Shown here one piece after another: positions 1-26,785 of a stretch of DNA of 64,000 nucleotides (positions are counted from its first letter, which is position 1; the number at the start of each line of letters is the position of its first letter). The stretch comes from Raillietiella orientalis. Lineage: Eukaryota. The position numbers were made by a program, and so were the translations under genes. The DNA is taken from NCBI GenBank assembly GCA_036172245.1, contig JAYWIR010000090.1:124001-188000 (forward strand). Direction: 5' to 3'. The notes under the pieces were generated by a model. The model was given only the letters and a program-made list of their open reading frames with translations. It did not search any database and was not told where the DNA came from.

Positions 1-1527
1 CAGAAGGTCTTCCCGGCCGCCATGGACGACTCATTTGTGGTGGAGATTTTCGACATCGAGTCGGAAATCTCCGATACTGATATTCGGAACGCGTTGGCGA
101 ACTTCGCCACGGTCCATGCGCTGTGGAGGGTGCGTAGCAACCTCAAGGACTTCCCGTCCATACACAGCGGAGTCGCTGGAGTCCGGCTTACAATGCCGGA
201 CCGCCGTCTGCTGCCCACCAAACTACAGGTGAAAGACACGGTCGTTCACCTGTGGTTCGTGGGCAAAGCAAAAACGTGCAAGCAATGCGGGAAGGAGGGG
301 CATTGTTTGGATAAATGCCCCTCTGGAAAATGCCGTTATTGCAAACTATCCGGGCACCAATTGAAAAATTGCCCGGATCTTTTGCGAAAAAAGGCAGCCG
401 CAGAGCTCCATCCTAGAAAACAAAGCGCGGATAAAAAGAAAAAATCTGCGAAAAACCTGGACACCCCACGGCAGAAATTCGGTAAAAACGCGAGGCGGAA
501 TGTCGCCCCAAAGCAGCAGGAAACCTCGCACGCGAAGCCCTGCGCGCCCCCTCTCGCGGCAGGGGAGCCGCAAAAGAAAGGGTGCGGGGAATCCGGGGCA
601 ATGGTAAGTCCCCCTAGGCGCAATAGCTGTCCTTCGCAAGCACGCCCGGCTCTTTCGGAGTTCGTGCAACCGGCGGGGACGTCAATGGACAACGGCGGTA
701 AGGACACTTCCAGTACCGTGAGATCCATTCCTTCACCTCCTGCAGTGGCTGAGAAGCCCAAATCGAGTAAGAAGGGTTGTGCAGTGTCGACTTCGAAAGT
801 CGGCAAAAAAAAATCCGCGTCGCGATCCAACACCGCGAAAGTGGAGAAAAATCTCACGCCGTCGCAATCGGAGAGCAAGCTCTCGACTGGCGCGGATGCC
901 ATGCCTACGAAGGGATTAAAATCCCTTCCGAAGGCAGCGTCCATGACGAGCGTGTCGAAGCCATCCAAAGTGCTCCCGTCCAAAGACGCGGATGGCTTCA
1001 AAGATGGTAATGGAGCACAATCTCCATTTACGGCGCCACGCGAAGTGAGGAACCGTAATGAAGTAAAGAAGACTTCAGCAAAGGTCCCTCGTGCAACTGC
1101 GCGTGAGCACGCTGAAAACGCGCGCGCCGGGAAAGCAGCCGTCACCAAAAGCGATGCTCTGGAGACGGAAAAAGGCAACAGGACAGCTGTCAATCCAGCA
1201 GAACCTGTCACTACTTCGCGGAAGGCCGAAACCCGATCGAACATGCGCCGGTCGGACTCCGAAATGGATGCCGTTCCGATCACCGAGACGAGGACAACTC
1301 GTTCGAAAGCGTGTGCGCGCCGATCAAAAGTAGGCAGCCAGGCAACTCTAGCCGCGAAGCCACGCGAAGTCTCCACGAAACCCGACGGGGATAAGCCTGG
1401 CGTGGAGGTATTACATGCATGCAGCACGACAGAGGACGGTGGCGACCGTCCCCTCCAGCCAGTCGTGCTGCTCGCCGTCTGCTCGCCGGATAAAGCGAGC
1501 AAAAAGCTGCCACCTTCCCACCAGTAA
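1..1527 (+). CDS. Copy A ORF1 (gag-like nucleic-acid-binding protein), 5'-partial
   Basis: Frame open from base 1 (QKVFPAAMDDSF aligns to RKILPVTMDRSV of other copies); CKQCGKEGHCLDKC and CRYCKLSGHQLKNC are CX2CX4HX4C knuckles; long K/S/P/A-rich tail. Confidence 0.85.
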   Translation, partial: QKVFPAAMDDSFVVEIFDIESEISDTDIRNALANFATVHALWRVRSNLKDFPSIHSGVAGVRLTMPDRRLLPTKLQVKDTVVHLWFVGKAKTCKQCGKEGHCLDKCPSGKCRYCKLSGHQLKNCPDLLRKKAAAELHPRKQSADKKKKSAKNLDTPRQKFGKNARRNVAPKQQETSHAKPCAPPLAAGEPQKKGCGESGAMVSPPRRNSCPSQARPALSEFVQPAGTSMDNGGKDTSSTVRSIPSPPAVAEKPKSSKKGCAVSTSKVGKKKSASRSNTAKVEKNLTPSQSESKLSTGADAMPTKGLKSLPKAASMTSVSKPSKVLPSKDADGFKDGNGAQSPFTAPREVRNRNEVKKTSAKVPRATAREHAENARAGKAAVTKSDALETEKGNRTAVNPAEPVTTSRKAETRSNMRRSDSEMDAVPITETRTTRSKACARRSKVGSQATLAAKPREVSTKPDGDKPGVEVLHACSTTEDGGDRPLQPVVLLAVCSPDKASKKLPPSHQ

Positions 1528-4500
1528 TGCGGGGAATCGCGTCTTCTCGTCGTCTGTCCGTAACGTGTTGGAACGTGAACGGACTGCAGAACGACGAGAA
1601 GAGGCGATTAGTAGCCAACGCCCTGCGCCCCTTAGACCTTGCGCTGCTGCAGGAGATTCACGTAATCTCCGACGATCAGGCGGCCGAAATCGAGGAGCGC
1701 GCAGGCGGAACGCTACATTGGCGGTGCGGCGGCGCACACACGTGCGGCGTCGCGTTCCTCGTAAGAGGAAAAATGGCGGAAGCGGTGCGTAGTGTTCGTT
1801 TCGATGACAACGGACGGATAGGCCAGCTTGTCATCAAGTGGTCCGAGTCCATCGATCTCGTCGTTACGAAAGTCTACGCGCCGAGTGGCTCTCGCTACCT
1901 CGAAGAAAGAGTAGCTTTCTTTGGTGAGGTGCAGAGCCAGTGGCTCAACAACTCCGGCTTCCAAGTGGCGCACCTCGTCGCTGGGGACTTCAACGTCCGC
2001 CTGCTCTCCGACGATTGGAGCCGCCCGAGGGAACGCGCGCTGCCCATCGAGATGTGCGCGTCCGTGCACGCCGCCAACTTGATGGTCAGCGAACCTGGAA
2101 TGGAAAGATCGCTCGATCACGTTTTCCTCGATGAAAACCTGCATTCGCGTGTGGGTAGGAGATGAAGATTGTTGACTGAGCTTTCTGACCACCACAGGTT
2201 GGAGTTTGAGATCCTTCCGCCAGGCAGGGGGCCTCCGTTGCAAAGCTGGAGGATGCAGGCGAATTGACTTAGCCAACCGGAGGCTGCGGAGCATCTACGT
2301 GGATACCTCCGGGGCTTTGCCGTTCAAGAACTTGCGGACTGGGACGATCTCAAAAGATCTGTCCGCGAGTTCTGTTGCCAATTCCCCTTGCACCGGCTTC
2401 CACGCGGTTTCGGAGAGGGCGTGGCCAACAGTAGAGACCTTCTGCAGGCCCGCACGTTTTCGAGACGCGCGGATGTCGGGCGTCTCGCAGAGTACAAGGC
2501 GAGGGCCGAGCGCCAGGTCTGGCAGTCCGGAGCAGCATGCCTGTTGGACGACAAGGGCCAGGAATGTTCGGCCCCAGCCGAAGTACGCCGCATTGTGAGA
2601 CGCTACTACTCCTCTCTGTCCGCGGAATCCCCGACGGAGGATATTCTTTCTGAGATACTCCTGTCTCAGGATGCTCGTGTTGTCAGCGAGGAGGAACGCG
2701 AACGTCTCAACGAGCCCTTCACGGCGGATGAATTTTCGTCCGCAATCGCTGGGCTGAAGAGACGAAAGGCGCCAGGCGAGGATGGGCTCCCTGCAGAGTT
2801 TTATCAGTGCTTTGCAGTGGAGCTCATTCCCTTGATGCTGAAACTCGCGACGCTGATGAGTGAATCCGGGAATGTCCTGGATTCCTTCCGCTCAGCGAAG
2901 GTGCGTCTCCTGCCGAAAGGCGGAGCCTTACGTCAACTTAACAACTGGCGTCCGATCACCTTGGTGAACTCGGACGTCAAGTAGTTTTCCAAGCTGTGGG
3001 TCGCGCGGTTAGGAAGTATCGCGGAATCTGTGGTGAGCCCGGAACAAACCTACGCGGTTCCGGGACGATCCATGGAGGCGAACATCCTTTTCGCGCGTAC
3101 ATGGAAGCAGCTGCAGGAAGTTGTGGCGCAGCAAAGCCAGGCTGCTGCGAAAGTCACTGCCGCAGGCAAGAAGAACAGGCGCCGACGGCAGGAGGGAACG
3201 CCAGGTGCCTTGGCGGTCGCGGTCGATCTCCACAAGGCGTTCGACTGCTTAAACCAGAAGCTGCTTTTGGAGCTTATGGAACGCCTTGGGTTCCCGGCGC
3301 AACTCCTGCTGTATTTGCGAGCGTGCTGGAGCCACGCGCTAACCTGCATTACTTTCAGCGGCTGCCGCGTGTATGGCATTCCCGTCCGTAGATGCATCCG
3401 ACAGGGCGACAGCTTAAGCCCGTTGCTCTTCAGCATCTTCTTTGAGTTGGTGCTAAGTGCATACAGGCTGACGCTGTCTCACTTGCCAAGCTCCTGCCCG
3501 GGAACGCCTGCCGTGGCCGCCTACGCTGATGACCTGCTTCTTCTGCTCCCCATGTCCACCCCGGCGTCCAGTGTCGAGGATTTCTTCGACCTGATTCGTC
3601 GGGGAGCGGGAGTGAGCGCGACCAGATAGAAGAGCGTGGTCGTTCCTGTGGGTACGTCGTGGGAGGGGCAGCCCGACTGGATCCGCCTGGGGATCCCCAC
3701 GGGCGGGTACTTTAAGTACCGTGGCGTTCCGTTGGGCGCTTTCGGCGCAGCCGAAGCGAGGGCGGACTGTCTTCAGAAAGCAGAGTTGGCCATCAGCCCG
3801 TTCTTTAACGGCAAGTTTACCTTGCAGGAACGGGCGACTATTTGGAACACCTTTGTGGCCTCCCTCCTCCGTCCCCTGTTTTTTGTTTTGGACCCCCCGT
3901 ATGCGGCTAAACAGCGGGCTAAACGCCTGCTCAGGAACGCTCTCTGGGGTCCGGCGAGATCCAGAATCCGCCTCAAAGATTTGTTTGCTCCGCGTCGGGA
4001 TGCTGGTTTAGGTATCTTAGCAATGGAGCGAATCGGACTGCAGGTGCAGTTCCGACTGCTGGCACTGTGTGCCCAGCTATGGACATCCCCCCTGTGTGTG
4101 CCAGCCCGCATTCTCCTGCGGAGATGAGCCGGCAGCGGAGGATTTCTCTCGCTTTTGCCGGGCACTCAATACAGGAAGCGGGGTTTCGGGTTTCCATTGC
4201 GGCAGTTGACCGCACTTCTGGAAGCTCACTCGTGGATCTCCTGCCGCCCAATAAACTTTGAAGCTTGGCGGCAGGAGTCTGTTGAATCCTGGGCTGCGTT
4301 CCAAGGAATACGCCCTGAAAATCTTCGCCCCCTGCGTCAATTTTTTCCACGATCCTTGGAAGAAGTACTGCAGGACGAGGTGAAGTTTTCTACCCTGGCT
4401 GCCACGCTTCTTGCCGCAGCGCTGTCTGCCCTCAGGGCAAAAAACAACAGTTACCTACCGCCGAAGTGGGAGGTTTCCTGCACGATAGCGGAAAAAACCA

Positions 4501-8780: not shown

Positions 8781-8791
8781 CGCCTAATGCC
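8781..8791 (+). other. Degenerate target/spacer motif between B 3' end and C 5' end
   Basis: cgcctaatgcc, 2 mismatches to cgccgaatccc; same context (GGTGGCAA|motif|TTGGCGAGTGG) as the E-D junction. Confidence 0.7.
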
Positions 8792-8887
8792 TTGGCGAGT
8801 GGACGTGTTTTTCCTACGCTTCCGAGTGAGTCGACAGGGAGCGGTTTTTTCTTTGTGTGTGTTCGTGTGGAACATCGTTGGGTTCCA
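8792..8887 (+). promoter_or_regulatory. ~96-bp 5' UTR, putative internal promoter
   Basis: Near-identical 5' UTRs in D (17197-17291) and E (22859-22953); motif ACGYGTTTTT...GCTYCCG..TGAG.CGA also in divergent F; promoter role inferred from LINE biology. Confidence 0.45.
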
Positions 8888-10760
8888 ATGGCAGCGATGC
8901 CTGAGGACACCACGATGGAGGTAGGTGTGGGGGAGGCTTGCCCACCTCCACAGCCTACAGAATCAGGAGCGTCCGCCCCGGAATCGCTCTCGCCGTCCAA
9001 GGCGAGTAGCTTGAGCGTCATGGTGGCCGCGCCGAGAGCGGAAACCATGGCCGAGATGGCGGCCTACCGGGCAGCTGAGTACAAGCCCAGCTTGGTGTAC
9101 CAGGTAGGCCCCTTATTTGATGGAAAAACGGCACGCGCGTTTTCGGAAGCGCTGCAAAACGCCGGAGTAAAAGAACAAGATCTTGACGGTTTTTCCGTTC
9201 TCAGCGGAGGTCAGCGAGTCGAGGTGGTGTGCAAGGAGATCACCTTGGCTCAGAAACTGATCACCAACCCGTTGAACGTCGACGGCCTCAAGATCTTGCC
9301 GGTGACGATGGACCGCTCCATGGTGGTCCATCTCACTGGAATAACGAGCCGTATGACTCGCTCTGCGGTAGCACAAGAACTTCGGAAGTTCGGCGAGGTG
9401 CACGCGCTGTGGCCTAAGCCAACAATCTTCGAAGGCCTTAATAGCCATTTCGGAGGCCAGGCTTCAGCGCGGGTAACCGTGAGTAAGGACTGTGGGCTTC
9501 CTTACAAGCTGGAGTTCGCGCAAGAGATAGTGGACCTCTGGTACGTGAGAAAGCCCCGGTATTGCGGCTACTGCGATACCGTAGGACACCTTCGCAAGAG
9601 GTGTGCTAACATCCAATGCCACATGTGCGGGGAGAAGGGCCACGTTCGACGTGTGTGCCCAAAACGCCCCACCCCGGATCCTCCTGCCGCGAAAAAGGCG
9701 CAGGGGAAACGCGCACTAAAGGTCACAAGACCTACGGCGGACGCTGGCCGGCAGAAGCTGCCAGATCCTCAACCTCCAAAAGAAAAGACGGAGGGTGAAC
9801 CTTCCCAAGAGGCGGAAGGTGAAGAGGGCTGGCAACTTGTAGCAGCCAGAAAAGAGAAAAAATCTTTTTTAAAGGAGAAGAAAGAGGAGCCGGTCGGTAA
9901 GGCAAAAAAAACCCGGGCCGCGCTCGAAAACTCTGCGCGTGTGCACGGTGGCACTGGAACGAATCGTCGTTCCCGAGGTTGCCACGCGGAGCGACGATCC
10001 TCCCCTTGCCGTTTACGCTGCTCTCGAGGCTCGCGACGACGAACCCTCTGTTTACACAGAGGGTGAGCCGCGCGACATAGCGGCGGTCGAAGCCGCGGAC
10101 GCCGCGTTCGCGCAGGCGGCGGAGGAGCTCGCGGTCACGCTGGCCGAGCGTGAGAACCCCTCGCGCAAGGCCGTGCGAAGGCCGGCTCCGGCGAAGAAGG
10201 CCCCCACAGGTGAGTTAGATCTGGGGGCCGGAAGTACATCCTCCTCCTCGGAGGCACCCCCCAGGAAGTCGGGACGCAATTCCCAGAAGCTAAGGAGGCG
10301 CCTCCCCTCCACCAGCGAGGAGAAGACGGAAGCCGTCGCCAGCGTGGGAAATTCGGAGGAGGAATTCCCACACTCGGAAGCCGTCGATCCGGCCACCCCC
10401 ATGGAAGAGGGTGAACAGGGGGGTGAAGTCTTCCCTGCAGGCGCCGACCCTGAACAGCCTGCCCTCATGGAGGAGGGCGAACAGGTAGGCGCGACCCCAC
10501 CTGTGGGTGAGCCAATCGACGTACAGTTTCTTATGGAGGAGGGTAACCAGGGGTCAGCAATGCCCTCTGAAACCGCCGAACCTGAACCACCCGCACCAAT
10601 GGATGTGGGCCAACAAGTACGAACAACACCCTCTTCGCACGGGCAGCCGGAGACGTCGGCACGTAAGAAGGATGGGGAGTTGGTGGGCAAGACGCCAACC
10701 CCGTCCAGAGACCCACCCCGAAAGGTGGCGGTCGCCGCAGTGCCATCTTCCCAGGAGTAA
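8888..10760 (+). pseudogene. Copy C ORF1 (two CCHC knuckles), one frameshift in the A-run near 9904-9911
   Basis: MAAMPEDTT start; CGYCDTVGHLRKRC and CHMCGEKGHVRRVC; continues in ORF 9939..10760, collinear with D/E ORF1. Confidence 0.87.
10401..10700 (+). repeat. 66-bp (22-aa) coding tandem repeat 'MEEGEQ...' in the ORF1 tail
   Basis: ATGs at 10401, 10467, 10533, 10599, exactly 66 bp apart, plus a degenerate fifth unit; 3 units in D and E. Confidence 0.8.
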
Positions 10761-11642
10761 CACCTGGACTCGCCTGTCGCCGTCGGATCCGCGCGGCCAG
10801 TTGGAATGTTAACGGGCTGCGCGACGACGGAAACAGACTAGATACAGCCGCCACCTTGCGAGATTTCGACCTGGTGCTTTTGCAGGAGATCCACGTGATC
10901 ACCGCAAAAGACGCCCAGGAGATCGAAACGATCGCAGGAGGGCGGTTGTACTGGCGATGCGGCGCCCGCAACACTTGTAGGGTCGCGTTCTTCCTAAAGC
11001 CAGCCATTAACGCGGCCGTGAAGGGCGATCGCTTTGGGGACGACGGACGGATCGGCCAACTGATTCTCAGATGGTCCGATTCGATCGACCTCATCGTCAC
11101 CAATGTGTACGCTCCTAGCGGTAAACAGGGATACCAGCAGCGCAACGCGTTACTGGAAACCTTGAAGCGCGAATGGCTGGTGGACGCGGACGTGCGAAAG
11201 GCGCATCTGATAGCACGGGATCTCAACGTCCGTCTGCTCTCAGATCAGCCCGGAGCACAGGGGAACGCGATCAACGAGTTGTGCGCCGCCATGCGCGCGC
11301 GCAACTTGTTGACAGAAATAAGCGGGTTGGTCAGCAGCGTGGACCACGTCTTCCTCGACGAAGACCTGTGCACACGGGTCGGAAAACGAGGGACACTTGG
11401 ATCGACGCTGTCGGACCATTCCCGGTTAGTATTCGAGATACGTCCGCGCGACAAGGAACCGCCTTCCAGGGATTGGCGTATGCCAGGGGACTGGACGCGC
11501 CTGTCAGGAGCGAAAGAACATCTTCGCGAATTCCTGCGAGGCGTCAGCCTCCAGAGTCTCGCGGATTGGGACCTATTTAAGGACTCGGTCCGGGAGTTCT
11601 GCGAACAGTTCCCTGTGCAACGTCTGCCCCGGGGATTCGGCG
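10760..11642 (+). pseudogene. Copy C ORF2 N-terminal part (APE endonuclease)
   Basis: SWNVNGL, LLQE, NVYAP, RDLN (degenerate GDFN), VDHVF, SDH. Confidence 0.88.
11632..11642 (+). other. Target-site duplication, left copy
   Basis: gggattcggcg; right copy gggattcgacg at 22954-22964. Confidence 0.82.
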
Positions 11643-11847
11643 TTGCCACCCGGGTACGCCCGGGGCGTTTATTGATAAACTTTACATGCGTGGTACAAGG
11701 CCCCACCACGGCCGTAAACACAGGACCTGTCGGGACACCGGGACGCAGCCCGGCGTGGCACTCCCCGACAGCGAAGGGGGATGGGGATGAGACAAAAAGT
11801 AAAATAAAAAGAAACAAACAAAAAGAAGTTGGAGGGCAGTGAAGGGA

Positions 11848-14800
11848 TCACTGGTCGCTGTGGGGAGGGCCCATCCGTCGAACGAAGCCCTCGAGGTCAG
11901 CCTGCATATTCCCCAGTTGGGGCCATCCGGCAGCTCTTCGCAAGAAGCGTTTGGCATACGGGATGACATCCCTCGCCTGTGGACCCACTCCTTCGTTGTT
12001 GGCGTCGCTCCATGCCGCCACGATACCACGGACGCAGCACAAGGCTGCGATGGCTGCGGCTGGCTGCAGTGCGTCCTTCACGAAGAGGGGCCGAAGAAAG
12101 TCTCTGGGGGTGCTGCCCGTAGGGAGCCCGAGGGTCGTCCCGAACCGTTCCCTAAGGGGTCTGAGGAAAGCACAATCCACAATAAGGTGGGGAAGCGACT
12201 CCCGCTCCCCGCACCTGGCACACCCAGGATCCACAGCTCCCCTCGTCCAGTGGAAGCGGCGCGCGTTGCAGGGTCGACCCCAGTGCAACAAAAGCAACGC
12301 CGACTCTTGCCACTTCAGGGGCAGGATCCTGGATTCTTTCATCACCGGGGGCCACTTCAGCTCATCCCTGGGGATGGCAAGCAGCTCGCCCCATCTTAAC
12401 AATCCTCGCGGCTGGACGCTCGGGGTCGAGGCGTCGGCCAGTTCTCCTGTTGTCCAGCCGCTGATCAACTTCTCCCGTCCCTCGATGCAGCAGGAGACTT
12501 GCCACCTTGGCGTCCGGGTGCTGTGAAGTGCCCTCCTTAGGAAGGGTAGCGCCGTAGCTAGGCAGGTCGTCTCTGCCCACGTGCATCTTGCTGGACTCTC
12601 CAGGAGATTCCGCAGCGTGCAGCGGGCGTAGGGGCTGCATCGGAGACGATTCCACGTTTCGTGGCTTCTCTGGTTGACTACTGCCCACGTTCCAATATTC
12701 TCCTCCAGCCAGGCGGGGGAGTTGGCGGGGCAGCAAACCATCCAGCTGTTCTCCTTGGCCAATGTTGCCATGCGACCGAGCAGTAGGCCGCATCTTCGCA
12801 TCTTCCGGCCACGGCTCAGAAGAAAAGACGCGAGTCCATCGCACCGGGACACACGGCTGGCCAGGAGGCGGGCCGGAGTGCACCAAGGGGTGCTCCACAT
12901 CTTCGCTGCGATGGCGAGGGTTCGCAACCGCAGCTGCTTTTCCACGCGCTCCAGCGTCAGGAGGCCAAGACCGCCGTCCCGACGCGGAGCGCACAAGTCC
13001 TTCAGTGGGACTCGGGGCCTCCCCTTGCCCCAAAGGGCGATACGGAGGAGGTCCTTCGTCCTCTTCTTGGATTCCACGGTGGGGGGGCAAACAAAAAGCA
13101 AGGGGCGGAGGATGGGGCCGCGAAGGGGTTCCAAACCGCGGCCCGTTCCGGCAAGTGAAACTTGCCTTCCAGGAACGGGCCGATCGCCGTCTCGACTTTT
13201 TGGAGGCAGCTGGACCACGCTTCCGCAGGGGAGTAGTCCCCCAACGGCACACCAAGGTACTTGAAGCACCTCGCCGTGTGGATCCCCAGACGGACCCAGT
13301 CCTGCTGCCCTGCCCACGCCGCACCTATTGGCACAACCGACGACTTCGCCCTGTTAACCTGCAGTCCGGTCCCGCGGCTGAGCAGATCGAAGAAGTCTCC
13401 GACCGCCATTGCCGGGGTGGACATTGGCAACAAAAGCAGAAGATCGTCGGCGTACGCTGCTACGGCGGGCGTGCCGGGGCACGAGCTCGGCAATGGGGCC
13501 AAAGTCACCCTGTACGCTCTCAGCACCAACTCAAAGTAGGTGCTGAAGAGCAGGGGGCTGAGGCTATCTCCCTGCCTTATGCCCCGTCGCACCGGCACGC
13601 CATGCACCTTGTGACCGCTGAAAGAGACGGTAATTGTCGCATTCCCACAGCAAGAGCGCAGGTAGGAAATCAGGGAGGGTGGAAAGCCTATGCGACCAAG
13701 GAGCTCCAAAAGGAGTTCCTGGTCTACACAGTCGAACGCCCTGTGGAGATCGACTGCGAGCGCTAGGGTTCCCTTCCCCGCCCGGGGTTCCCTTCCCATC
13801 CCGGCTGGCGTCCTTAATGTGGGGTTGCCGACTTTCCCTATCGCTTTCTTTTCTCTTCTTTGCAGGTGCACCCATGTGCTTGCGAAGAAGAGGTTGGCAT
13901 CCATACTTCGCCCGGGAACAGCATAAGTCTGCTCCGGGCTAATTACGGATTCTGCCACCAGCCCCAGACGCGAAGCCCATAGCCCTGCGATCAACTTGGC
14001 GTCCGTATTCACGATCGTGATCGGACGCCAGTTCTTTAAATCCCTGAGGTCTCCCCCTTTCGGCAGGAGCCTCACTCTGGCTGACCGAAACGAGGCGGGA
14101 ACATCGCCTTCGTCTCGGATCAGCCTGATCAACTTAAGCAGCAGGGGTGCGAGCTCCTCCGCGAAGCTCTGAAAGAACTCCGCGGGCAAGCCGTCTTCCC
14201 CTGGAGCTTTACGCCTCTTGAGCCTTTTGATACCGGCGAGAATTTCGCCGGTGGTAAAAGGCTCGTCGAGGCTTTCCATCTCCTCCTCCCCGATTGCCGG
14301 GGCGCCATCCGGAAGCAAGCGCCGAGAGGCGTTTCGATCCGGGGGCTGCCTGGCGTAAAGGGAGGAATAGAAACTCCGCACGAGATGCCGTACCGACGCC
14401 GGGGACGAACATTCCCGGCCCTGGTCGTCCAGCAAGCTGGCCGACCCGGATTGCCAGGCTTGGCGTTCGGCCCCGGCGCGGTACTCGGCCAGGCGACGGA
14501 CATTAGGGGTTCTCTCGTACCTACGAGCCTGTAAATAGGCCCGATGGTTGCGAGCACCCTCGCCGAATCCGGGGGCAGGCGATCCAGGGGGAACTGCTCA
14601 CAGAACTCGCGGACCGATTCCTTAAAAAGGTCCCAGTCCTGGAGATTCCGGAGCGTGACACCTCTCAGGTATTCGCGAAGGTATTCCTTCGCACCTGAGA
14701 GTCGCGTCCAGTCCCCCGGCAGACGACAATCCCTGGATGGCGGTCCCTTGTCACGAGGCCGCATCTCGAAAATTAACCGGGAATGGTCCGACAACGTCGA

Positions 14801-15442
14801 CGCAACCCTCCCCCGTTTGCCGACCCGTGAACACAGGTCAGCGTCGATGAAGACGTGGTCGATGCTGCGGACCATTCCCCTCTCACCCGCGAACAAGTTG
14901 CGCGCACGCATGGCGGCGCACAACTCGTTCATCGCGTTCTCTTGTGTTTCTGGCTCACCTGTTAGCAGACGGAGATTGAAATCTCCCGCTATCAGGTGAG
15001 CCTTCCGCACGTTCGTGTCCGCCAGCCAGTCGCGCTTCAGGGAATCCAGCAGCCTGGTACGGTCGCTGTATCCCTGTTTACCGCTGGGGGCGTACACATT
15101 CGTGACGATCACTTCGATCGAGTCGGACCAGCTGAGAATCAGCTGACCGACCCGACCGTCGTCATCGAAGCGCACGCCCTTCACGGCCGCGTCGATGGCC
15201 GGCTTCACGAAGAACGCGACCCCGCAGGTGTTGCGGAGGCCGCACCGCCAATACAGCCGACCCCTCGCGATCGTCTCGATCTCCTGGGCGTCTGCCGCGG
15301 TGATCACGTGGATCTCCTGCAGCAGGGCCAGGTCGAGCTCACGCAGGGTGTCGGCCGTATCTCGCCTGTTACCGTCGTCGCGCAGCCCGTTGACGTTCCA
15401 ACAGGCGGCGCGAATCCGACGGCGACTGGCGAGCCCAGGTGT
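11848..15442 (-). pseudogene. Copy D ORF2 (APE-RT-CCHC), frameshifts near 14571 and 13115
   Basis: ORF pieces 14129..15307, 13002..14435 and 11848..13317 carry GDFN, IDH, SDH, YADD, KYLG, CARCGERESLPHLIVDC. Confidence 0.92.
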
Positions 15443-17196
15443 TATTCCTGGGAAGATGACGATGCGGCGTCCGCCACCTGTTGGGGCGGGACGCTAGGTG
15501 GAGGAGGAGGGTCAGGCGCTGCGTGCACCTGGTCCCCCTCCTCCATGGGTAACGGCGCGTCAAGGGGGTCACCCTTAAGTGGGGTGGTGCCTACCTGTTG
15601 GCCCTCCTCCATGGGGGCGGGCTGTTCAGGCTCGGCGACTGCAGGGAGGACTTCGCCCCCCTGCTCACCCTCCTCCATGGGGGTGGCCGGCTCGAAGGCT
15701 TCCGCGCGTGGGAGTTCCCCCTCCGGGATTCCCACGCTACCGCTACCTTCCTGCTTCTCCTCCTCGCTGGTGGAGGGGAGGCGCCTCCTGGGTTTCTGGG
15801 ACTTGCGTCCCGACTTCCTGGAAGGTGCCTCCGAGGAGGAGGATGCACTTCCGGCCCCCAGGTCCGACTCACCTGTGGGGGCCTTGTTCGCGGGAGCCGG
15901 CCTTCGCACGGCCTTGCGTGAGGGGTTCTCACGCTCCGCCAGCGTGGCCGCGAGCTCCTCCGCCGCCTTTGCGAACGCGGCGTCCGCAGTGTCGACCGGC
16001 GCGTCGCGCGGCTCACCCTCTGTGTAAACAGAGGGTTCTTCGTCGCGAACCTCGGGCGCGGCGGAAACGGCGAGGTAAGGCTCGTCGCCCCGGGTGGCAA
16101 TCTCGGGAACGGCTATACGCTCCAGTGCTACCGTACATTCCCGCATGGTCTTAGAGCGCGGCCCAGGTTTTTTCGCCTTGCCGGCTGTCTTTTTTACCGC
16201 TTTCGCGGGTTCCGCGGGGTGCACCTTTTTCTCCTACCTGGCCTTGACCATCTGCCAGCCGTCTTGGACTCCCGCGTCTTCGGAGGGTTTTTCTTCCGAC
16301 GCCTGTGTGGGAGGAACAGGGGCTAGCGGCTGCTGCCGGCCAGTATCTCTTTTTGGTCTTTCGACCAGTTTACTGCGTTTTGCCTGTGCTTTTTTTGCAG
16401 CAGGCGGCACCGGAGTGGGGCGTTTAGGGCATACGCGGCGTACGTGGCCCTTCTCCCCGCATAAGTGGCACACAATGTTCGGGCACCGCTTGCGCAAGTG
16501 TCCTACTGCATTGCAGTAACCACAAAAGCGGGGTTTCCCCACGTACCAGAGGTCTACGACTTCGCCATTGACCTCTAGTTTGTGGGGAAGCCCACTCTCG
16601 TTCACCGTCACGCACGCGGCGGCCTGCCCTCCGAAAAGGCTATCGTAGCCATCGAAGATTGTGGCCTTTGGCCAAAGCGCGTGAACATCCCCGTGCTTTC
16701 TTAACTGATCACCAACCGCAGACCGCGTCATGCGGCTGGTGATCCCTGTCAGATGGACCACTACGGAGCGGTCCATCGTGACTGGTAGGATCTTGCGTCC
16801 GTCCACGTTCAGCGGGGTGGTTATCAAGCTTTGCGCTAAGGTGATGTCCTTGCAGACAACCTCAACGCGCTGACCCCCGCTTAGCACGGATAGACCGTCA
16901 AGGTCCTTTTCTAACACGTTGGCGTTCTGCAGTGCTTTCGAAAAAGCGCGTGCAGTTCGCCCGTCAAAGAGATTGCCTACCTGGTAAACCAAGCTGGGCT
17001 TGTACCCAGCTGCCCGGTAGGCCGCCATCTCGGCCATGGTTTCCGCGCTCGGCGCGGCCACCATGGCGCTCCAGCTCCTCGCCTTGAGCGGCGAGGGCGA
17101 TTCCGGGGCGGACGCCCCTGATTCTGTAGGCTGTGGGGGTGGGCAAGCCTCCCCCACACCTATATTCATCGTGGTGTCCTCAGGCATCGCTGCCAT
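15442..17196 (-). pseudogene. Copy D ORF1, single in-frame TAG at 16234-16236
   Basis: 16234..17229 and 15442..16224 share a frame; E has AAG at the stop position; two CCHC knuckles. Confidence 0.9.
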
Positions 17197-17291
17197 CGGA
17201 CACCAACGATGTTCCACACTGAACAACACAACAAAAAACCGCTTCCTGTCGACTCACTCGGGAGCGAAGGAAAAACACGTCCACTCGCCAA

Positions 17292-17302
17292 GGGTTTCGG
17301 CG
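17292..17302 (+). other. Target-motif spacer between tandem copies D and E
   Basis: gggtttcggcg between D's 5' end and E's 3' end. Confidence 0.8.
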
Positions 17303-17508
17303 TTGCCACCCGGGTACGCCCGGGGCGTTTATTGATAAACTTTACATGCGTGGTACAAGGCCCCACCACGGCCGTAAACACAGGACCTGTCGTGACACCG
17401 GGACGCAGCCCGGCGTGGCACTCCCCGACAGCGAAGGGGGATGGGGATGAGACAAAAAGTAAAATAAAAAAGAAACAAACAAAAAGAAGTTGGAGGGCAG
17501 GGAGGGGA

Positions 17509-20500
17509 TCACTGGTCGCTGTGGGGAGGGCCCATCCGTCGAACGAAGCCCTCGAGGTCAGCCTGCATATTCCCCAGTTGGGGCCATCCGGCAGCTCTTC
17601 GCAAGAAGCGTTTGGCATACGGGATGACATCCCTCGCCTGTGGACCCACTCCTTCGTTGTTGGCGTCGCTCCATGCCGCCACGATGCCACGGACGCAGCA
17701 CAAGGCTGCGATGGCTGCGGCTGGCTGCAGTGCGTCCTTCACGAAGAGGGGCCGAAGAACGTCTCTGGGGGTGCTGCCCGTAGGGAGCCCGAGGGTCGTC
17801 CCGAACCGTTCCCAAAGGGGTCGGAGGGCAGCACAATCCCCAATAAGGTGGGGAAGCGACTCCCGCTCCCCGCACCTGGCACACGCAGGATCCACAGCTC
17901 CCCTCGTCCAGTGGAAGCGGCGCGCGTTGCAGGGTAGACCCCAGTGCAACAAAAGCAACGCCGACTCTTGCCACTTCAGGGGCAGGATCCTGGATTCTTT
18001 CATCACCGGGGGCCACTTCAGCTCATCCCTGGGGATGGCGAGCAGCTCGCCCCATCTTAACAATCCTCGCGGCTGGACGCTCGGGGTCGAGGCGTCGGCC
18101 AGTTCTCCTGTTGTCCAGCCGCTCATCAACTTCTCCCGTCCCTCGATGCAGCAGGAGACTTGCCACCTTGGCGTCCGGGTGCTGTGAAGTGCCCTCCTTA
18201 GGAAGGGTAGCGCCGTAGCTAGGCAGGTCGTCTCTGCCCACGTGCATCTTGCTGGACTCTCCAGGAGATTCCGCAGCGTGCAGCGGGCGTAGGGGCTGCA
18301 TCGGAGACGATTCCACGTCTCGTGGCTTCTCTGGTTGACTACTGCCCACGTTCCAATATTCTCCTCCAGCCAGGCGGGGGAGTTGGCGGGGCAACAAACC
18401 ATCCAGCTGTTCTCCTTGGCCAATGTTGCCATGCGCCCGAGCAGTAGGCCGCATCTTCGCATCTTCCGGCCACGGCTCAGAAGAAACGACGCGAGTCCAT
18501 CGCACCGGGACACACGGCTGGCCAGGAGGCGGGCCGGAGTGCACCAAGGGGTGCACCACATCTTCGCTGCGATGGCGAGGGTTCGCCACCGCAGCTGCTT
18601 CTCCACGCGGTCCATCGTCAGGAGGCCAAGACCGCCGTCCCGACGCGGAGCGCACAAGTCCTTCAGAGGAACTCGGGGCCTCCCCTTGCCCCAAAGGGCG
18701 ATACGGAGGAGGTCCTTTTTCCTCTTCTTCGATTCCACGGTGGGGAAGCAAACAAAAAGCAAGGGCGGAGAATGGGGGACGCGAAGGCGTTCTAAACCGC
18801 GGCCCGTTCCGGCAAGTGAAACTTTCCTTCCAGGAACGGGCCGATCGCCGTCTCGACTTTTTGGGGGCAGCTGGCCCACGCTTCCGCAGGGGAGTAGTCC
18901 CCCAACGGCACACCAAGGTACTTGAAGCACCTCGCCGTGGGGATCTTCAGACGGATCCAGTCCTGCTGCCCTGCCCACGCCGCACCTATTGGCACAACCG
19001 AGGACTTCGCCCTGTTAACCTGCAGTCCGGTCCCGGGGCTGAGCAGATCGAAGAAGTCTCCGACCGCCTTTGCCGGGGTGGACATTGGCAACAAGAGCAG
19101 AAGATCGTCGGCGTACGCTGCAACGGCAAGCGTGCCGGGGCACGAGCTCGGCAATGGGGCCAGAGTCACCCTGTACGCTCTCAGCACCAACTCAAAGTAC
19201 GTGCTGAAGAGCAGGGGGCTGAGGCTATCTCCCTGCCTTATGCCCCGCCGCACCGGCACGCCATACACCTTCTGTCCACTGAAAGAGACGGTAATCATCG
19301 CCTTCCGCCAGCAAGAGCGCAGGTAGGAAATCAAGGAGGGTGGGAAGCCCATGCGACCCAGAAGCTCCAAAAGGAGTTCCTGGTCTACACAGTCGAACGC
19401 CTTGTGGAGACGGACTGCGAGCGCTAGGGCCCCCTTCCCCGCCCGGGGGTCTTTTCCCAGCCCGGCTGGCGGCCCCAATGTGGGGTTGCCGACTTTCCCT
19501 ATCCCTTTCTTCTCTCTTCTCTGCAGGTGCACCCATGTGCTTGCGAAGAAGAGGTTGGCATCCATACTTCGCCCGGGAACAGCATAAGTCTGCTCCGGGC
19601 TAATTACGGATTCTGCCACCTTTCCCAGACGCGAAGCCCATAGCCCTGCGATCAACTTGGCGTCCGTATTCACGATCGTGATCGGACGCCAGTTCTTTAA
19701 ATCCCTGAGGTCTCCCCCTTTCGGCAGGAGCCTCACTCTGGCTGACCGAAACGAGGCGGGAACATCGCCTTCGTCTCGGATCAGCCTGATCAACTTAAGC
19801 AGCAGGGGTGCCAGATCTTCCGCGAAGCTCTGAAAGAACTCCGCGGGCAAGCCGTCTTCCCCTGGAGCTTTACGCCTCTTGAGCCTTTTGATACCGGCGA
19901 GAATTTCGCCGGTGGTAAAGGCTCGTCGAGGCTTTCCATCTCCTCCTCCCCTATTGCCGGGGCGCCATCCGGAAGCAAGCGCCGAGAGGCGTTTCGATCC
20001 GGGGGCTGCCTGGCGTAAAGAGAGGAATAGAAACTCCGCACGAGATGCCGTACCGACGCCGGGGACGAACATTCCCGGCCCTGGTCGTCCAGCAAGCTGG
20101 CCGACCCGGATTGCCAGGCTTGGCGTTCGGCCCCGGCGCGGTACTCGGCCAGGAGACGGACATTAGGGGTTCTCTCGTACCTACGAGCCTGTAAATAGGC
20201 CCGATGGTTGCGAGCACCCTCGCCGAATCCGGGGGGCAGGCGATCCAGGGGGAACTGCTCACAGAACTCGCGGACCGATTCCTTAAAAAGGTCCCAGTCC
20301 TTGAGATTCCGGAGCGTGACACCTCTCAGGTATTCTCGAAGGTATTCCTTCGCACCTGAGAGTCGCGTCCAGTCCCCCGGCAGACGCCAATCCCTGGATG
20401 GCGGTCCCTTGTCACGAGGCCGCATCTCGAAAATTAACCGGGAATGGTCCGACAACGTCGACGCAACTCTCCCCCGTTTGCCGACCCGTGAACACAGGTC

Positions 20501-21105
20501 AGCGTCGAGGAAGACGTGGTCGATGCTGCGGACCATTCCCCTCTCACCCGCGAACAAGTTGCGCGCACGCATGGCGGCGCACAACTCGTTCATCGCGTTC
20601 TCTTGTGTTTCTGGCTCACCTGATAGCAGACGGAGATTGGAATCTCCCGCTATCAGGTGAGCCTTCCGCACGTTCGTGTCCGCCAGCCAGTCGCGCTTCA
20701 GGGAATCCGTGCGCCCGGCATTGTCAGCGTATCCCTGTTTACCGCTGGGGGCGGCACAGTTCGGTGATCGATCGGATTGATCGAGTCGGACCAGCTGAGA
20801 ATCAGCTGACCGATCCGACCGTCGTCATCAAACCGCACGCCCTTTACGGCAGCGTCGATGGCCGGCTTCACGAAGAACGCGACCCCGCAGGTGTTGCGGA
20901 GGCCGCACCGCCAATACAGCCGACCCCCCGCGATCGTCTCGATCTCCTGGACGTGCGCCGCGGAGATCACGTGGATCTCCTGTAGCAAGGCCAGGTTGAA
21001 CTCACGCAGTGGGTCGGCTGTGTCTCGCCTGTTGCCGTCGTCGCGCAGCCCGTTGACATTCCAACAGGCGGCGCGAATCCGACGGCGACTGGCGAGCCCA
21101 GGTGT
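17509..21105 (-). pseudogene. Copy E ORF2 (APE-RT-CCHC), frameshifted
   Basis: Pieces 20698..20988, 19790..20671, 18792..20072, 17509..18978; YADD present; GDSN instead of GDFN; indel cluster at ~20705-20780. Confidence 0.92.
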
Positions 21106-22858
21106 TATTCCTGGGAAGATGGCGATGCGGCGTCCGCCACCTGTTGGGGCGGGACGCTAGGTGGAGGAGGAGGGTCAGGCGCTGCGTGCACCTGGTCCCC
21201 CTCCTCCATGGGTAACGGCGCGTCGAGGGGGTCACCCTTAGGTGGGGTCGCGCCTACCTGTTGGCCCTCCTCCATGGGGGCGGGCTGTTCAGGCTCGGCG
21301 ACTGCAGGGAGGACTTCGCCCCCTTGCTCACCCTCCTCCATGGGGGTGGCCGGCTCGACGGCTTCCGCGCGTGGGAGGTCCCCCTCCGGGATTCCCACGC
21401 TACCGCTACCTTCCTGCTTCTCCTCCTCGCTGGTGGAGGGGAGGCGCCTCCTGGGTTTCTGGGACTTGCGTCCCGACTTCCTGGGGGGGGCCTCCGAGGA
21501 GGAGGATGCACTTCCGGCCCCCAGGTCCGACTCACCTGTGGGGGCCTTTTTCGCGGGAGCCGGCCTTCGCACGGCCTTGCGTGAGGGGTTCTCACGCTCC
21601 GCCAGCGTGGCCGCGAGCTCCTCCGCCGCCTTTGCGAACGCGGCGTCCGCAGTGTCGACCGGCGCGTCGCGCGGCTCACCCTCTGTGTAAAGAGAGGGTT
21701 CGTCGTCGCGAACCTCAGGCGCGGCGGAAACGGCGAGGGAAGGCTCGTCGCCCCGGGTGGCAATCTCGGGAACGGCTATACGCTCCAGTGCTACCGTACA
21801 TTCCCGCATGGTCTTAGAGCGCGGCCCAGGTTTTTTCGCCTTGCCGGCTGTCTTTTTTACCGCTTTCGCGGGTTCCGTGGGGTGCACCTTTTTCTCCTTC
21901 CTGGCCTTGACCAGCTGCCAGCCGTGTTGGACTCCCGCGTCTTCGGAGGGTTTTTCTTCCGACGCCTGTGTGGGAGGAACAGGGGCTAGCGGCTGCTGCC
22001 GGCCAGTATCTCTTTTTGGTCTTTCGACCAGTTTACCGCGTTTTGCCTGTGCTTTTTTTGCAGCAGGCGGCACCGGAGTGGGGCGTTTAGGGCATACGCG
22101 GCGTACGTGGCCCTTCTCCCCGCATAAGTGGCACACAATGTTCGGGCACCGCTTGCGCAAGTGTCCTACTGCATTGCAGTAGCCACAAAAGCGGGGTTTC
22201 CCCACGTACCAGAGGTCTACGACTTCGTCATTGACCTCTAGTTTGTGGGGAAGCCCACTCTCCTTCACCGTCACGCGCGCGGCGGCCTGCCCTCCGAAAA
22301 GGCTATCGTAGCCATCGAAGATTGTGGCCTTTGGCCATAGCGCGTGAACATCTCCATATTTTCTTAACTGATCACCAACCGCAGACCGCGTCATACGGCT
22401 GGTGATCCCTGTCAGATTGACCACTACGGAGCGGTCCATCGTGACTGGTAGGATCTTGCGTCCGTCCACGTTCAGCGGGGTGGTTATCAAGCTTTGCGCC
22501 AAGGTGATGTCCTTGCAGACAACCGCGACGTGCTGACCCCCGCTGAGCACGGATAGACCGTCAAGATCCTCTTCCAACACGTTGGCGTTCTGCAGCGCTT
22601 TCGAAAAAGCGCGTGCAGTTCACCCGTCAAAGAGATTGCCTACCTGGTACACCAGGCTGTGCTTGTACCTAGCTGCCCGGTAGGCCGCCATCTCGGCCAC
22701 GGTTTCGCGCTCGGCGCGGCCACCATGGCGCTCCAGTTCCTCGCCTTGGGCGGCGAGGGCGATTCCGGGGCGGACGCTTCTGATTCTGTAGGATGTGGGG
22801 GTGGGCAAGCCTCCCCCACACCTACCTCCATCGTGGTGTCCTCAGGCATCGCTGCCAT
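21105..22858 (-). pseudogene. Copy E ORF1, 1-bp deletion near 22705
   Basis: 22640..22891 plus 21105..22580; CGYCNAVGHLRKRC and CHLCGEKGHVRRVC. Confidence 0.9.
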
Positions 22859-22953
22859 CGGACACCAACGATGTTCCACACTAAACAACACAACAAAAAA
22901 CCGCTTCCTGTCGACTCACTCGGGAGCGAAGGAAACACACGTCCACTCGCCAA

Positions 22954-22964
22954 GGGATTCGACG
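22954..22964 (+). other. Target-site duplication, right copy
   Basis: gggattcgacg followed by aaggggctcgcaac (GFDEGARN), the expected continuation of C ORF2 (cf. E: GFGEGARN). Confidence 0.82.
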
Positions 22965-25671
22965 AAGGGGCTCGCAACGAACGCCCGTATTTGCACGCGC
23001 GTCGTCACGAAAGGAACCCCAATGTCCGTCGCCTAGCCGAATACCGCGCCGGAGCCGAGCGACAAGCCTGGCAATCCGGGTCAGCCAGCATGCTGGATGA
23101 CTTGGGCCGGGAACGTTCGTCGCCGTCTGCGGTACGGAATCTCGTGCGGTGTTTTTATTCCTCCCTTTACGCCAAAAGACCACCCGAACAAGACGCCTCG
23201 CGGCGATTGCTCATGAGTGGTTCCGTGGCGATAGGGGAGGAGGAGAGAGAAAGCCTTGATGAGCCTTTCACGACCGGTGAAATTCTCGCCGGTATCAAAA
23301 GGCTTAAGAGGCGTAAGGCGCCAGGGGAGGACGGCTTGCCCGCGGAGTTCTTTCAGAGTTTCGCGGAAGAGCTGGCCCCCCTGGTGCTCGAGTTGAAGGG
23401 CGAATCCGAGGCGAAGGCGATGTTACCTCCTCGTTTCGGTCAGCCAGGGTGAGGCTCCTCCCGAAGGGAGGAGACCTCAGGAAACTTTGCAACTGGCGTC
23501 CGATCACGATTGTGAACACGGACGCCAAGTTGATTGCCGGGCTGTGGGCGTCGCGATTGGGGCAGGTGTCCAATTCCATAATTAGCCCGGAGCAGACTTA
23601 CGCTGTTCCCGGGCGAAGTATGGAGGACAACCTCTTCTTCGCGAGCACATGGATGCACGCGCAGCGGAGTAATAAAGAAGGGAAAGGGAAAATTTGCAAC
23701 CCTACTTTGGGGCCGCCAGCGGGACAGGGTAGGGACCCTCATGCGAGAAAGTGGGCCTTAGCGATCGCAGTCGACCTCCATAAGGCATTCGACTGTGTTG
23801 ACCAGGAACTCCTCTTGGAGCTCCTGGGTAGCATGGGCTTCCCACCCTCCTTGATTACCTACCTGCGCTCTTGCTGGCGGAACGCGATAATCGCAATTAC
23901 TTTCAGTGGACAAAAGGTGTATGGCGTGCCGGTGCGGCGGGGCATAAGGCAGGGCGACAGCCTCAGCCCCCTGCTTTTTAGCACCTACGCTGAGTTGGTG
24001 CTGAGAGCGTACAGGGTGACTTTGGCGCCCTTGCCGAGCTCGTGCCCCGGCACGCCAGCCGTAGCGGCGTATGCCGACAATCTTCTGCTCCTCTTACCTA
24101 TGTCCACCACGGCGAAGGCGGTCGGAGATTTCTTCGACCTGCTTAGCCGTGAGGCCGGATTACAGGTTACCAGGGCGAAGTCGTCAGTGTTGCCAGTTGG
24201 AGCGACGTGGGCAGGGCAGCAGGACTGGGTCCGTCTGGGGATCCCCACGGTAAGGTTCATCAAGTACCTCGGTGTGCCGTTGGGGGACTTCTCCCCTGCG
24301 GAAGCGTGGTCCAGCTGCCTCCAAAAAGTCGAGACGGCGATCGGCCCGTTCCTGGAAGGCAAGTTTCACTTGCCGGAATGGGCCGCGGTTTGGAACGCCT
24401 TCGCGGCCGTCATCCTCCGCCCCTTGCTTTTTCTTTGCCCCGCCCCCGTGGAATCAAAAAAGCGGACGAAGGACCTCCTCCGCATAGCTCTTTGGGGCAA
24501 GGGGAGGCCCCGAGTCCCTTTGAAGGACTTGTGTGCTCCGCGTCGGGACGGCGGTCTCAGCATCCTGACGCTGGAGCGCGTGGAAATCCAGCTGCGATGG
24601 CGGACCCTTGCCATCGCAGCGAAGATGTGGAGCACCGCTTGGTGCATTCCGGCTCGCCTCCTGGCCAGGCGTGTGTCCCGCTCCGAAGGACTCGCATCGT
24701 TTCTTCTGTGCCCTGGCCGGAAGATTCGAAGATGCGGTCTACTGCTCGGCCGCATGGCAACCCTGGCAAAGGAGAACGACTGGATGGTTTGTGGCCCTGC
24801 CAACTCCTCCGCTTGGCTGGAAGAGACTGCTGGCACCTGGGCCAAGCAGAACCAGAGGTGCGAAGACCGGATGAACTGCCTGCGATTCGGCTTTTACGCC
24901 CGCCGAACTCTCCGTGAAATTCTTCAATTTCCACGGAGTTGCACGTGGGCGGAAGGCACACCCCTTGTTACGGCGATGCCCTTCCTCCAAAGAGCGCTTC
25001 ACGAAAGCCGGAAGCCAACGTGGCAAGTCTGCTGCCGTATCGCAGGCAGAGAGAAGATGATGAGCGGCTGGACCATGGGAGAGTTGACAGATGCAACGAC
25101 CCCTAATCTCCAGCCGCGTGGATTAAGAAGATGGGGCGAGCTGCTCGGCATTCGATTGGATGACCTGAAGTGGCCCCCGTGTCTACTTGGATCCAGGATT
25201 CTTCCCCTGAAGTGGCAAGAATCGGCGCTTCTGTGGCTGCATTGGGGTCTACCCTGCAACGCGCGCCGCTTCCACTGGACGCGGGGAAGAGTAAATCCTG
25301 CGTGTGCCAGGTGTGGGGAGCAGGAGTCGCTCCCCCACCTCTTAGTTGAATGCCCTGCCGTCCAGATTCTTTGGGATCGTCTGAAAACGGCCCTCCGGAT
25401 ACCGGATGGTGGCAATGTTGGATGTGTCTTCAGTCTGGTCTTCGTGCGGGACGCTCTCAGTCCAGCCGCAGCCCTGGCAGCACTTTGCTGCATTCGTGGT
25501 ATTGTGGCGGCCTGGAGTGATGCCGAACATGAAGACTGCATCGTGAGGGACGTCATCGAGTATGCTTCTCGCTTCCTGCAGAGAGCTACCCGATGGCCCC
25601 ATCTAGGAAAGCTGAAAATGGAACTAAAAGGCATCCTGCAAAGGATGGGCGCTCCCAGCAGTTTTCAGTGA
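22955..25671 (+). pseudogene. Copy C ORF2 C-terminal part (RT and CCHC)
   Basis: 740-aa ORF 23449..25671 with WRPITI, DLHKAFD, RQGDSLSP, YADN (catalytic D to N), KYLG, CARCGEQESLPHLLVEC; frameshift near 23395. Confidence 0.9.
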
Positions 25672-25899
25672 TCCCTTCCCGGCCCTCCAAACTTTTTTTT
25701 TTGTGGTTTGTTTTTCTTTTTTATTTTATTTTTGTTTTTTCCCCCATCCCCCTCCACTGCCGAGGAGAGCCACACCGGGCTGCGTCCCGGTGTCCCGGCA
25801 GTTCCGGTATTGCGTGACCGTCAGTGGGGCCTTGTACCACGTTCTGTATTGACCGTTGAAATGTTTTTTAATAAACGTCCCGGCGTATCCGGGTGGCAT

Positions 25900-26785
25900 C
25901 GCCGAAACCTGGAGGAAGTTGATGGAGGGGAAACTGGTCACAGAACTCTGGGACTGAGCGTTTTATTTTGTCCCAGTCAGCGAGAGTCTGCAGTTCGCAA
26001 CTACGCAGGAATGCGCGCAGATGTTCGCGCGGTCCTGCGAGTCGCAACCAGTCCCCCGGCAGGCGCCACGTTTCGGAAGGTGGACCTCTGTCGCGCGGAT
26101 GAATGTTGATCACTAGCCGAGAGTGATCGGACAGTTGCGACGCAATTGCTCCTCGAGTCCCCATCCGCGTACACAAGTGGTTATCGAGGAACACGTGGTC
26201 GATTCTGCTTCTCGCCCCGGCTTCATCGGCCAACAAGTTGCGTGTGTGCATAGCCGCACACAACTCGTTGACCAATTGCGCTCGTATGTCGGGCGCTTCC
26301 GACAGCAGGCGGACGTTGAAGTCTCCCGCTATCAGATGCGCCCGCCGCACGCCTGCTTCGGCCAGCACGTCTCGCCGCAGGGCTTCGAAGAACGCAGTGC
26401 GTTCTGCGCGCCTGTGGCTGGTGCAGGGCGCGTACAGGTTCGTGACTACGAGGTCGATCGATTCGGACCACTTAAGGACAAGTTGTCCGACTCGACCTCC
26501 CTCGTCGAACTGTGCACTGCGCACCGCATTGGCCACGGCCGGCTTCAGCAGGAAGGCCACTCCGCGGGAGTGGTCTCCTCCACCACGCCAAAGTAGCCTG
26601 TCCCCTGTGAGCCTCTCGATTTCCTGGACGTCCTCTGCTCTGAAGGCATGCACCTCTTGAAGAAGTGCCAGATCGAAAGGTCGCAGGGTGTCGGCCACGC
26701 TACGCCTCTTGCTTTCGCTACGCAGCCCGTTGACATTCCAACAGGCTATACGCAGCTGCCGGCAAGAGGCGATTACACGCATCAT
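25900..26785 (-). pseudogene. Copy F ORF2 N-terminal part (APE endonuclease)
   Basis: CWNVNGL, LLQE, NLYAP, GDFN, RIDHVF, SDH in one open frame. Confidence 0.9.

Follow-up and report, generated by a model that had tools for sequence, protein, structure and literature searches.

SART1 of Bombyx mori is a non-LTR retrotransposon of the R1 clade. Its ORF2 is described as coupled in translation to ORF1 through UAAUG (PMC3894237, PMC5972666). Translation of ORF2 in human LINE-1 (L1) is reported to be AUG-independent (PMC11485995, PMC5009743), and in the cited passages this independence rests on engineered mutants (PMC5009743, PMC11485995); the way in which ORF2 of LINEs is initiated is called unresolved in reviews, as far as their cited parts go (PMC3894237, PMC5009743, PMC11485995). 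The TURBS-dependent sites of caliciviruses and influenza B virus, and the victorivirus sites, are described as tolerating near-cognate and, in vitro, non-cognate codons (PMC11921876, PMC5972666). According to the cited passages, a ribosome that has terminated can restart with Met-tRNAi at a near-cognate codon; restart at non-cognate codons, via eIF2D or the 80S ribosome with a cognate elongator tRNA, is reported in vitro (PMC5972666). In the dictyostelid LINEs, the reverse-transcriptase frame of NLTR-B is described as having no start codon, and a -1 frameshift is stated for the TRE elements (PMC5911963).

The LINEs of Raillietiella orientalis that were the focus of this study resemble SART1 in that they are bicistronic and of the APE type, with an ORF1 stop overlapping the ORF2 start in the -1 frame (UAAUG or UGAUG in the AUG lineages), and in a large predicted structure downstream in ORF2. 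SART1 has an AUG, whereas lineages here fixed ACA, ACC, GCA or ACG; furthermore, the elements here add a predicted upstream hairpin and a junction-spanning stem, and match Tx1/L1 proteins best (about 30%). Human L1 shares with them an L1-type ORF2 from a bicistronic RNA and the unconventional AUG-independent restart that is proposed here (PMC11485995, PMC5009743, PMC5972666), but it has a natural AUG and a 63-nt spacer, and in the cited passages its AUG independence was obtained by mutation, whereas the loss here was natural, repeated, and fixed. Structure upstream of a stop/start junction is a likeness to the TURBS and victorivirus systems (PMC11921876, PMC5972666); however, the alignments of TURBS in the cited parts have a fully conserved AUG start, and UGGGA was not found within 120 nt upstream in 39 of 41 rows (the other 2 were both from one old ACG family), and the TURBS motif was rejected. 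TRE5-A, TRE3-A, and NLTR-B are likewise APE-type LINEs with a downstream frame that has no ordinary start (PMC5911963), but no stop/start overlap with in-register AUG-bearing sisters is described for them in the cited passages, whereas the loss can be placed on a tree here. The literature covered, which left most subscription papers and repeat-database entries outside, yielded no LINE described as having a stop/start overlap with a naturally fixed non-AUG codon. LINE stop/start coupling with naturally fixed non-AUG codons is, on the sequence record, a real and well-supported feature, and its mechanism is one that we infer.

The window, i.e., the whole stretch of 64,000 nt that was analyzed, consists of nested LINE copies in bases 1-28.7 kb and of a 278-bp satellite array in the remainder. 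This array (28732-64000, ~40% GC) directly adjoins the LINE cluster and is possibly centromeric. The elements and junctions in the LINE cluster were as follows:

1525..1529, plus strand: element A junction, TAATG stop/start overlap of an AUG lineage
8786..10760, plus strand: element C 5' region carrying ORF1, the frame of which is disrupted in this copy (open-frame and domain analysis)
10758..10762, plus strand: element C junction, TAACA; ORF1 stop TAA (10758-10760) overlaps ORF2 codon ACA (10760-10762)
10760..11642, plus strand: element C ORF2 endonuclease region (PF03372), first Met at codon 178, interrupted by D and E
22955..25899, plus strand: element C ORF2 3' part, reverse transcriptase (PF00078), resuming beyond the D and E insertion
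11632-17302, minus strand: element D, whole extent
15440..15444, minus strand: element D junction, TAACA; first Met at codon 171, past GDFN (starting at codon 153)
17292-22964, minus strand: element E, whole extent
21103..21107, minus strand: element E junction, TAACA
26780..26785, minus strand: element F junction, ATGATG, with stop TGA overlapping ATG, AUG lineage

The LINEs are bicistronic, with a zinc knuckle in ORF1 (PF00098 matched in D and E) and endonuclease and reverse-transcriptase domains in ORF2 (PF03372 and PF00078, respectively). Among the 8000 best candidates of 931-2655 aa, the closest database proteins were L1/Tx1 types with ~30% identity; the best named match by sequence similarity was Xenopus Tx1 (30%), and ORF2 also matched human L1 endonuclease structures (E 6e-08). 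On these matches, C, D, and E are APE-type LINEs, probably of the L1/Tx1 type. All three copies are broken (open for 360, 437, and 135 codons, respectively), and C is split by the insertion of D and E.

Each of the five window elements (A, C, D, E, and F) has its ATG or ACA 14 codons upstream of the WNVNG tryptophan, overlapping the stop of ORF1 in the -1 frame. The first-pass annotation had given the junction letters of these elements, the common register of ACA in C, D, and E with the Met in A and F, and a first in-frame ATG of D after GDFN; all were recovered (codon 171 vs 153 for the last), with D and E on the minus strand. When D was aligned to human L1 endonuclease, its residue 8 corresponded to chain residue 6, so that ACA sits where the start of ORF2 belongs. 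Since the catalytic positions N, E, Y, and D in this alignment are all upstream of codon 171, a protein initiated at the first ATG would lack most of the active site.

Genome-wide counts cover the whole assembly (210 Mb, 491 contigs). TAACA-N39-WNVNG gave 365 exact matches and ATG-N39-WNVNG 758, vs 0 for the reversed-pattern controls of both, and the junction pattern is therefore not due to chance. Among the 30 best relatives of C, 28 were anchored: 24 TAACA, 2 TAAAA, 1 GAACA, and 1 TAATA. A pattern anchored on the downstream sequence of the ACA clade gave 350 matches, and the first 100 listed contained, by an eye count, 78 TAACA, 7 TAGCA, 7 TAACC, and 8 singletons or pairs, with no ATG. A direct genome search for ATG in the clade context with one mismatch allowed returned 6 matches, all ATA and none ATG. 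Whether TAACA is fixed in the family, a point raised by the first-pass annotation, is thus answered by the 365 junctions and by the lack of ATG among these clade-context matches; the intact copies with TAATG that it had named as adverse evidence did not appear either, copies with a whole ORF2 carrying TAACA. Its term "younger" for the ACA subfamilies did not hold, because near-identical copies were present in both ACA and ATG lineages (terminal branches of 0.001-0.01 in both, in a rough tree); "derived" fits instead, and the ACA clade is, as far as these branches tell, derived rather than more recent than the ATG lineages. In one copy with an ACA-clade junction, L102 (G000:C40:98708), the upstream flank bears no relation to ORF1 beyond about 20 nt ahead of the stop, presumably owing to a truncation or insertion.

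Twenty loci were picked for long open frames out of 81 pattern matches, and 15 could be anchored. TAACA was present in 15/15 of these pre-selected loci, and a whole ORF2 in 5/15: L105, L106, L108, L109, and L110, with 1198-1253 codons from ACA. L105 carries a 540-codon ORF1 besides, and the whole 1198-codon frames retain WNVNG, QE, GDFN, SDH, and YADD. Selection was estimated from the majority strings of eight ACA sublineages (3-15 copies each, four resting on 3 copies). In 8/8 strings the first Met was located at codon 64-178, past the positions that correspond to N14 and E43 in the human L1 endonuclease, and P-G-L-A-x-R-R at codons 2-8 was conserved throughout the clade. The dN/dS values were 0-0.40 for codons 2-62 (dS up to 0.87) and 0.09-0.38 for codons 2-169 (dS up to 1.06), each from 28 pairs that share branches and are non-independent; those for codons 251-450 in C, T_b, and CGATT (0.45-0.79) were set aside as inflated by nested insertions. 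Judged from these ratios, codons 2-62, upstream of any Met, are under purifying selection, and the decay of ORF2 (dN/dS near 1) that would have spoken against the earlier reading was not what these codons gave. The frame of a LINE remains under selection via copying in cis; taken with purifying selection before the first Met, this suggested that the N-terminus was translated over a long history without an AUG. The strings and whole frames together show an ACA-clade ORF2 that has kept its N-terminus, length, and purifying selection.

Several observations concern insertion sites. D and E lie antisense within C (window 11632-22964), at about +841 nt from the WNVNG Trp codon, and breaks recur at shared places in ORF2 (counted in nt from this codon: about +141-151, +427, and +841) in C, L133-L141, L033/L046/L047/L052/L054, and L236-L243. 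In several cases, the inserts at these positions are other LINE copies, which suggests site-specific LINE-into-LINE insertion. The 3' ends of L105, L106, L108, and L109 have AATAAA followed by a short GC-rich palindromic stretch, with no poly(A) tail, and adjoin a recurring GCCGAA-type target, often the 5' end of another copy.

A first tree (132 rows) was distorted by copies broken by nested insertions; 46/132 rows were excluded as non-co-linear or too distant, and it was superseded by a 32-row tree of hand-chosen co-linear rows (819 columns downstream of the start codon, midpoint root). In the latter, the ACA clade was monophyletic (100/100) and nested among AUG lineages. The ancestral state shown by this midpoint-rooted tree is an AUG on the ORF1 stop or up to 14 nt after it; one large clade, so rooted, swapped AUG for ACA, and sublineages for ACC and GCA. 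The ORF1 stop of the AUG lineages L152, L145/L162, and L160/L161 has moved 6-15 nt upstream, with the ORF2 AUG unmoved. Copies with TAGCA and with TAACC lie dispersed and belong to two sublineages. All 7 with TAGCA are older and broken; 6/7 with TAACC make up a single lineage that shares about 71-80% identity with L105 (L182 is separate). The ACC lineage was the earliest branch of the ACA clade, and dN/dS between one ACC copy and the eight majority strings was 0.09-0.23. The ACA codon itself is, by its placing among these sisters, not special, ACC and GCA being fixed in sister sublineages.

A second loss was found in a young family reached from two TAACG matches, the best 40 matches of which had 92-100% identity. 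An initial reading of 9 TRACG matches as scattered mutants was rejected; the TRACG pattern misses the CAACG lineage. Twenty copies were fetched and 18 anchored: 16 ACG, 1 ACA, and 1 CCG, with no ATG at the start position in these 18. In this family, 8 nt separate the end of the stop from ACG, codon 78 holds the first Met, and the ORF2 frame closes 7 codons upstream, so that a frameshift would have about 4 codons to occur in. This lineage was nested among AUG lineages (100/99), adjoining L160 and L161, in which an ATG stands in register with its ACG, and a single clade of the ACG lineage with the ACA group was rejected (p-AU 0.002). The tree and this test show that the AUG-to-ACG change was, as placed there, independent of the ACA clade. 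A whole ORF2 was not found in 10 longer copies of the lineage (the longest had 550 codons, and 6/10 were cut at about +841), and branch-specific changes were few: 8 synonymous and 6 nonsynonymous. The old family X (5 ACG, 2 ACA, and 2 AAG among 9 copies) may be sister to the ACA clade by its tree position; since a single clade of the two was not rejected (p-AU 0.08), only two independent losses are claimed. On these topologies, AUG was lost at least twice.

Local folding was compared with shuffles for 25 lineage representatives in 135 windows, with nested folds only. The predicted structures in the window were as follows:

1469-1501, plus strand: element A upstream hairpin, predicted, z -1.97
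10751..10767, plus strand: element C stem CCAGG/CCTGG with stop and ACA in a 7-nt loop, predicted, -7.4 kcal/mol
10865..10927, plus strand: element C long hairpin in ORF2, about 105-170 nt past the stop, predicted, z -5.12, 0/200 shuffles
15275..15337, minus strand: element D downstream long hairpin in ORF2, predicted, z -3.71
15467..15494, minus strand: element D upstream hairpin (ahead of the stop), with its loop about 38 nt from ACA, predicted, z -3.23
21130-21157, minus strand: element E upstream hairpin, predicted
26813-26836, minus strand: element F upstream hairpin, predicted, z -6.17

Upstream of the stop, the lowest mean z values were found at -60 and -48 (-2.06 and -1.88, respectively). 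The loop of the upstream hairpin lies 35-45 nt before the start codon in 40/41 rows, in a varying register; its counts in named-structure comparisons with shuffles were 20/500 and 12/500, with modest covariation, and it has decayed in the window copy C (z -0.53). For most lineages, a junction-spanning stem was predicted. In the AUG lineages, the U and G of the start codon are paired within this stem; the ACA clade has it displaced by one base, a 7-nt loop holding the stop and first codon, an arrangement also found in ACC and GCA copies. The counterpart in D of the CCAGG/CCTGG stem of C had a z of -2.18. Covariation in the junction stem was not above shuffles (71/500). The hairpin at +105..170 was 83.8% paired over 21 rows (0/500 shuffles) and had 12 double-change cells (pairs with double changes were reached in 62/500 shuffles), in a control that ignores the relatedness of rows. 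RNAalifold gave no consensus for the junction alignment and, downstream, only a weak, different 4-pair structure, neither the +105..170 hairpin nor the other structures above being recovered; Rfam over 10500-11100 gave 3 weak matches, all far below gathering scores. The upstream, junction, and downstream hairpins are likely to be real structures on these predictions. Stronger mean-z minima were located inside ORF2 (+120, +288, +516, and +744), and hairpins equally strong deeper in ORF2 mean that structure at the junction need not serve translation. Strong conserved local folds occur in ORF2 of all lineages at about +288, +516, +744, and +804 nt from the ORF1 stop, the first three spaced 228 nt.

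We consider it probable that ORF2 is made by position-dependent, AUG-independent coupled termination-reinitiation. A ribosome would terminate at the ORF1 stop without full recycling, perhaps held by the flanking hairpins, and would restart at that position or within one codon, in the -1 frame, the site being set by position rather than by a codon-anticodon match. In the ACG lineage, ordinary near-cognate restart with Met-tRNAi would do; ACA, ACC, and GCA mismatch AUG at two or three positions, and the ribosome would have to restart there on a non-cognate codon, perhaps as an unrecycled 80S or by an eIF2D-type route, using the cognate elongator tRNA. For LINEs, it is generally assumed that about one ORF2 protein per RNA is enough; if so, a low restart efficiency would suffice. 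The AUG-independent reinitiation suggested by the first-pass annotation gains support from the fixed junction, purifying selection before the first Met, and the lack of a conserved slippery heptamer. Termination-reinitiation also fits the drifting stop with a fixed AUG (the stop is up to 15 nt further upstream in some AUG lineages, with the AUG in place), the ACG lineage, and the finding that no slippery site is shared. As a tentative extension, the post-termination ribosome may resume in the -1 frame with an elongator tRNA and no Met, positioned by the stem loop that holds the stop and first codon, the genome then presenting an allelic series of AUG, ACG, ACA, ACC, and GCA with at least two independent losses; the candidate tRNA in such a codon-blind reading is that for Thr or Ala, or for the Ile/Val/Leu codon before.

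It seems unlikely that ORF2 is reached by a non-canonical -1 (or +2) frameshift, at the ORF1 stop or immediately ahead of it, which would yield an ORF1-ORF2 fusion with codon -14 as an internal Thr or Ala. Such a shift would suit the conservative set of Thr, Thr, and Ala for ACA, ACC, and GCA, as well as the ORF2 frame over the final codons of ORF1, which gives F-P-G-[I/V/L] and in which the changes are synonymous; a -1 frameshift is described as needed for ORF2 of Dictyostelium TRE5-A and TRE3-A (PMC5911963). The stop never moves in the ACA clade, being exactly adjacent in 16/16 representative rows, and a stop-dependent frameshift would require the same placement; the ORF2 frame is open for 12-31 or more codons upstream of the junction, which makes upstream entry possible. 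However, there is no common XXXYYYZ heptamer in the ORF1 frame, and none is conserved within the overlap, as had been noted earlier (2/14 representatives, C-runs at differing places, none shared). The last ORF1 codon varies (Glu, Asp, and Ala), so that no single P-site tRNA re-pairs in all, the AUG lineages share an F-P-A-[V/L/I] pattern that is explained by the junction stem, and the stop of the ACG lineage is detached from the conserved codon. Met-tRNAi reinitiation at another near-cognate codon, either the stop-overlapping AUA at -15 or an AUC/AUU/AUA codon at -5, is quite unlikely: although ATA was found at -15 in 7/14 representatives and ATH at -5 in 12/14, and a product begun at -5 might still contain the first endonuclease strand, codon -15 is GTA, TTA, or CTA in large sublineages, including L110 with its whole ORF2, codon -5 is TTA or TTG in one lineage, and P-G-L-A-x-R-R is kept clade-wide. 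AUA at -15 as a common start was rejected because it is not conserved.

Production of ORF2 from spliced RNA, with an upstream AUG exon joined to an AG 6 nt, or about 36 nt, before ACA, is very improbable. Most lineages have, ahead of the stop, a pyrimidine-rich tract that ends in CAG, with YAG at -8 in 30/41 rows, but the AG is missing in two ACA sublineages (L110, with a whole ORF2, and L186) and in the ACG lineage. Given cis preference, spliced RNA should leave retrocopies, and none was identified in two pattern searches, which catch only part of such copies and gave 4 and 2 matches (5 point mutants and L102). RNA editing of ACA or ACG to AUG was rejected, since cis preference predicts ATG copies and none was found in the ACA context or in the 18 ACG-lineage copies. 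The lack of a universal acceptor AG and of spliced or edited retrocopies fits coupled termination-reinitiation. It is hardly credible that the ACA-clade ORF2 is untranslated and its copies mobilized in trans by AUG lineages, abundant as these are (758 junctions) and broken as most copies are, because dN/dS is far below 1 before the first Met with dS up to about 1 within the clade, and the whole 1198-codon frames keep all motifs; by these ratios and frames, trans mobilization appears already largely refuted.

In these LINEs, evolution did the mutagenesis: related, recently active lineages differ in the start codon (AUG, ACG, ACA, ACC, and GCA) and in the position of the stop. Because they share one sequence context, a short reporter series can separate Met-tRNAi restart, elongator-tRNA restart, and frameshifting. 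ORF calling based on ATG would class such autonomous LINEs as endonuclease-less or dead.
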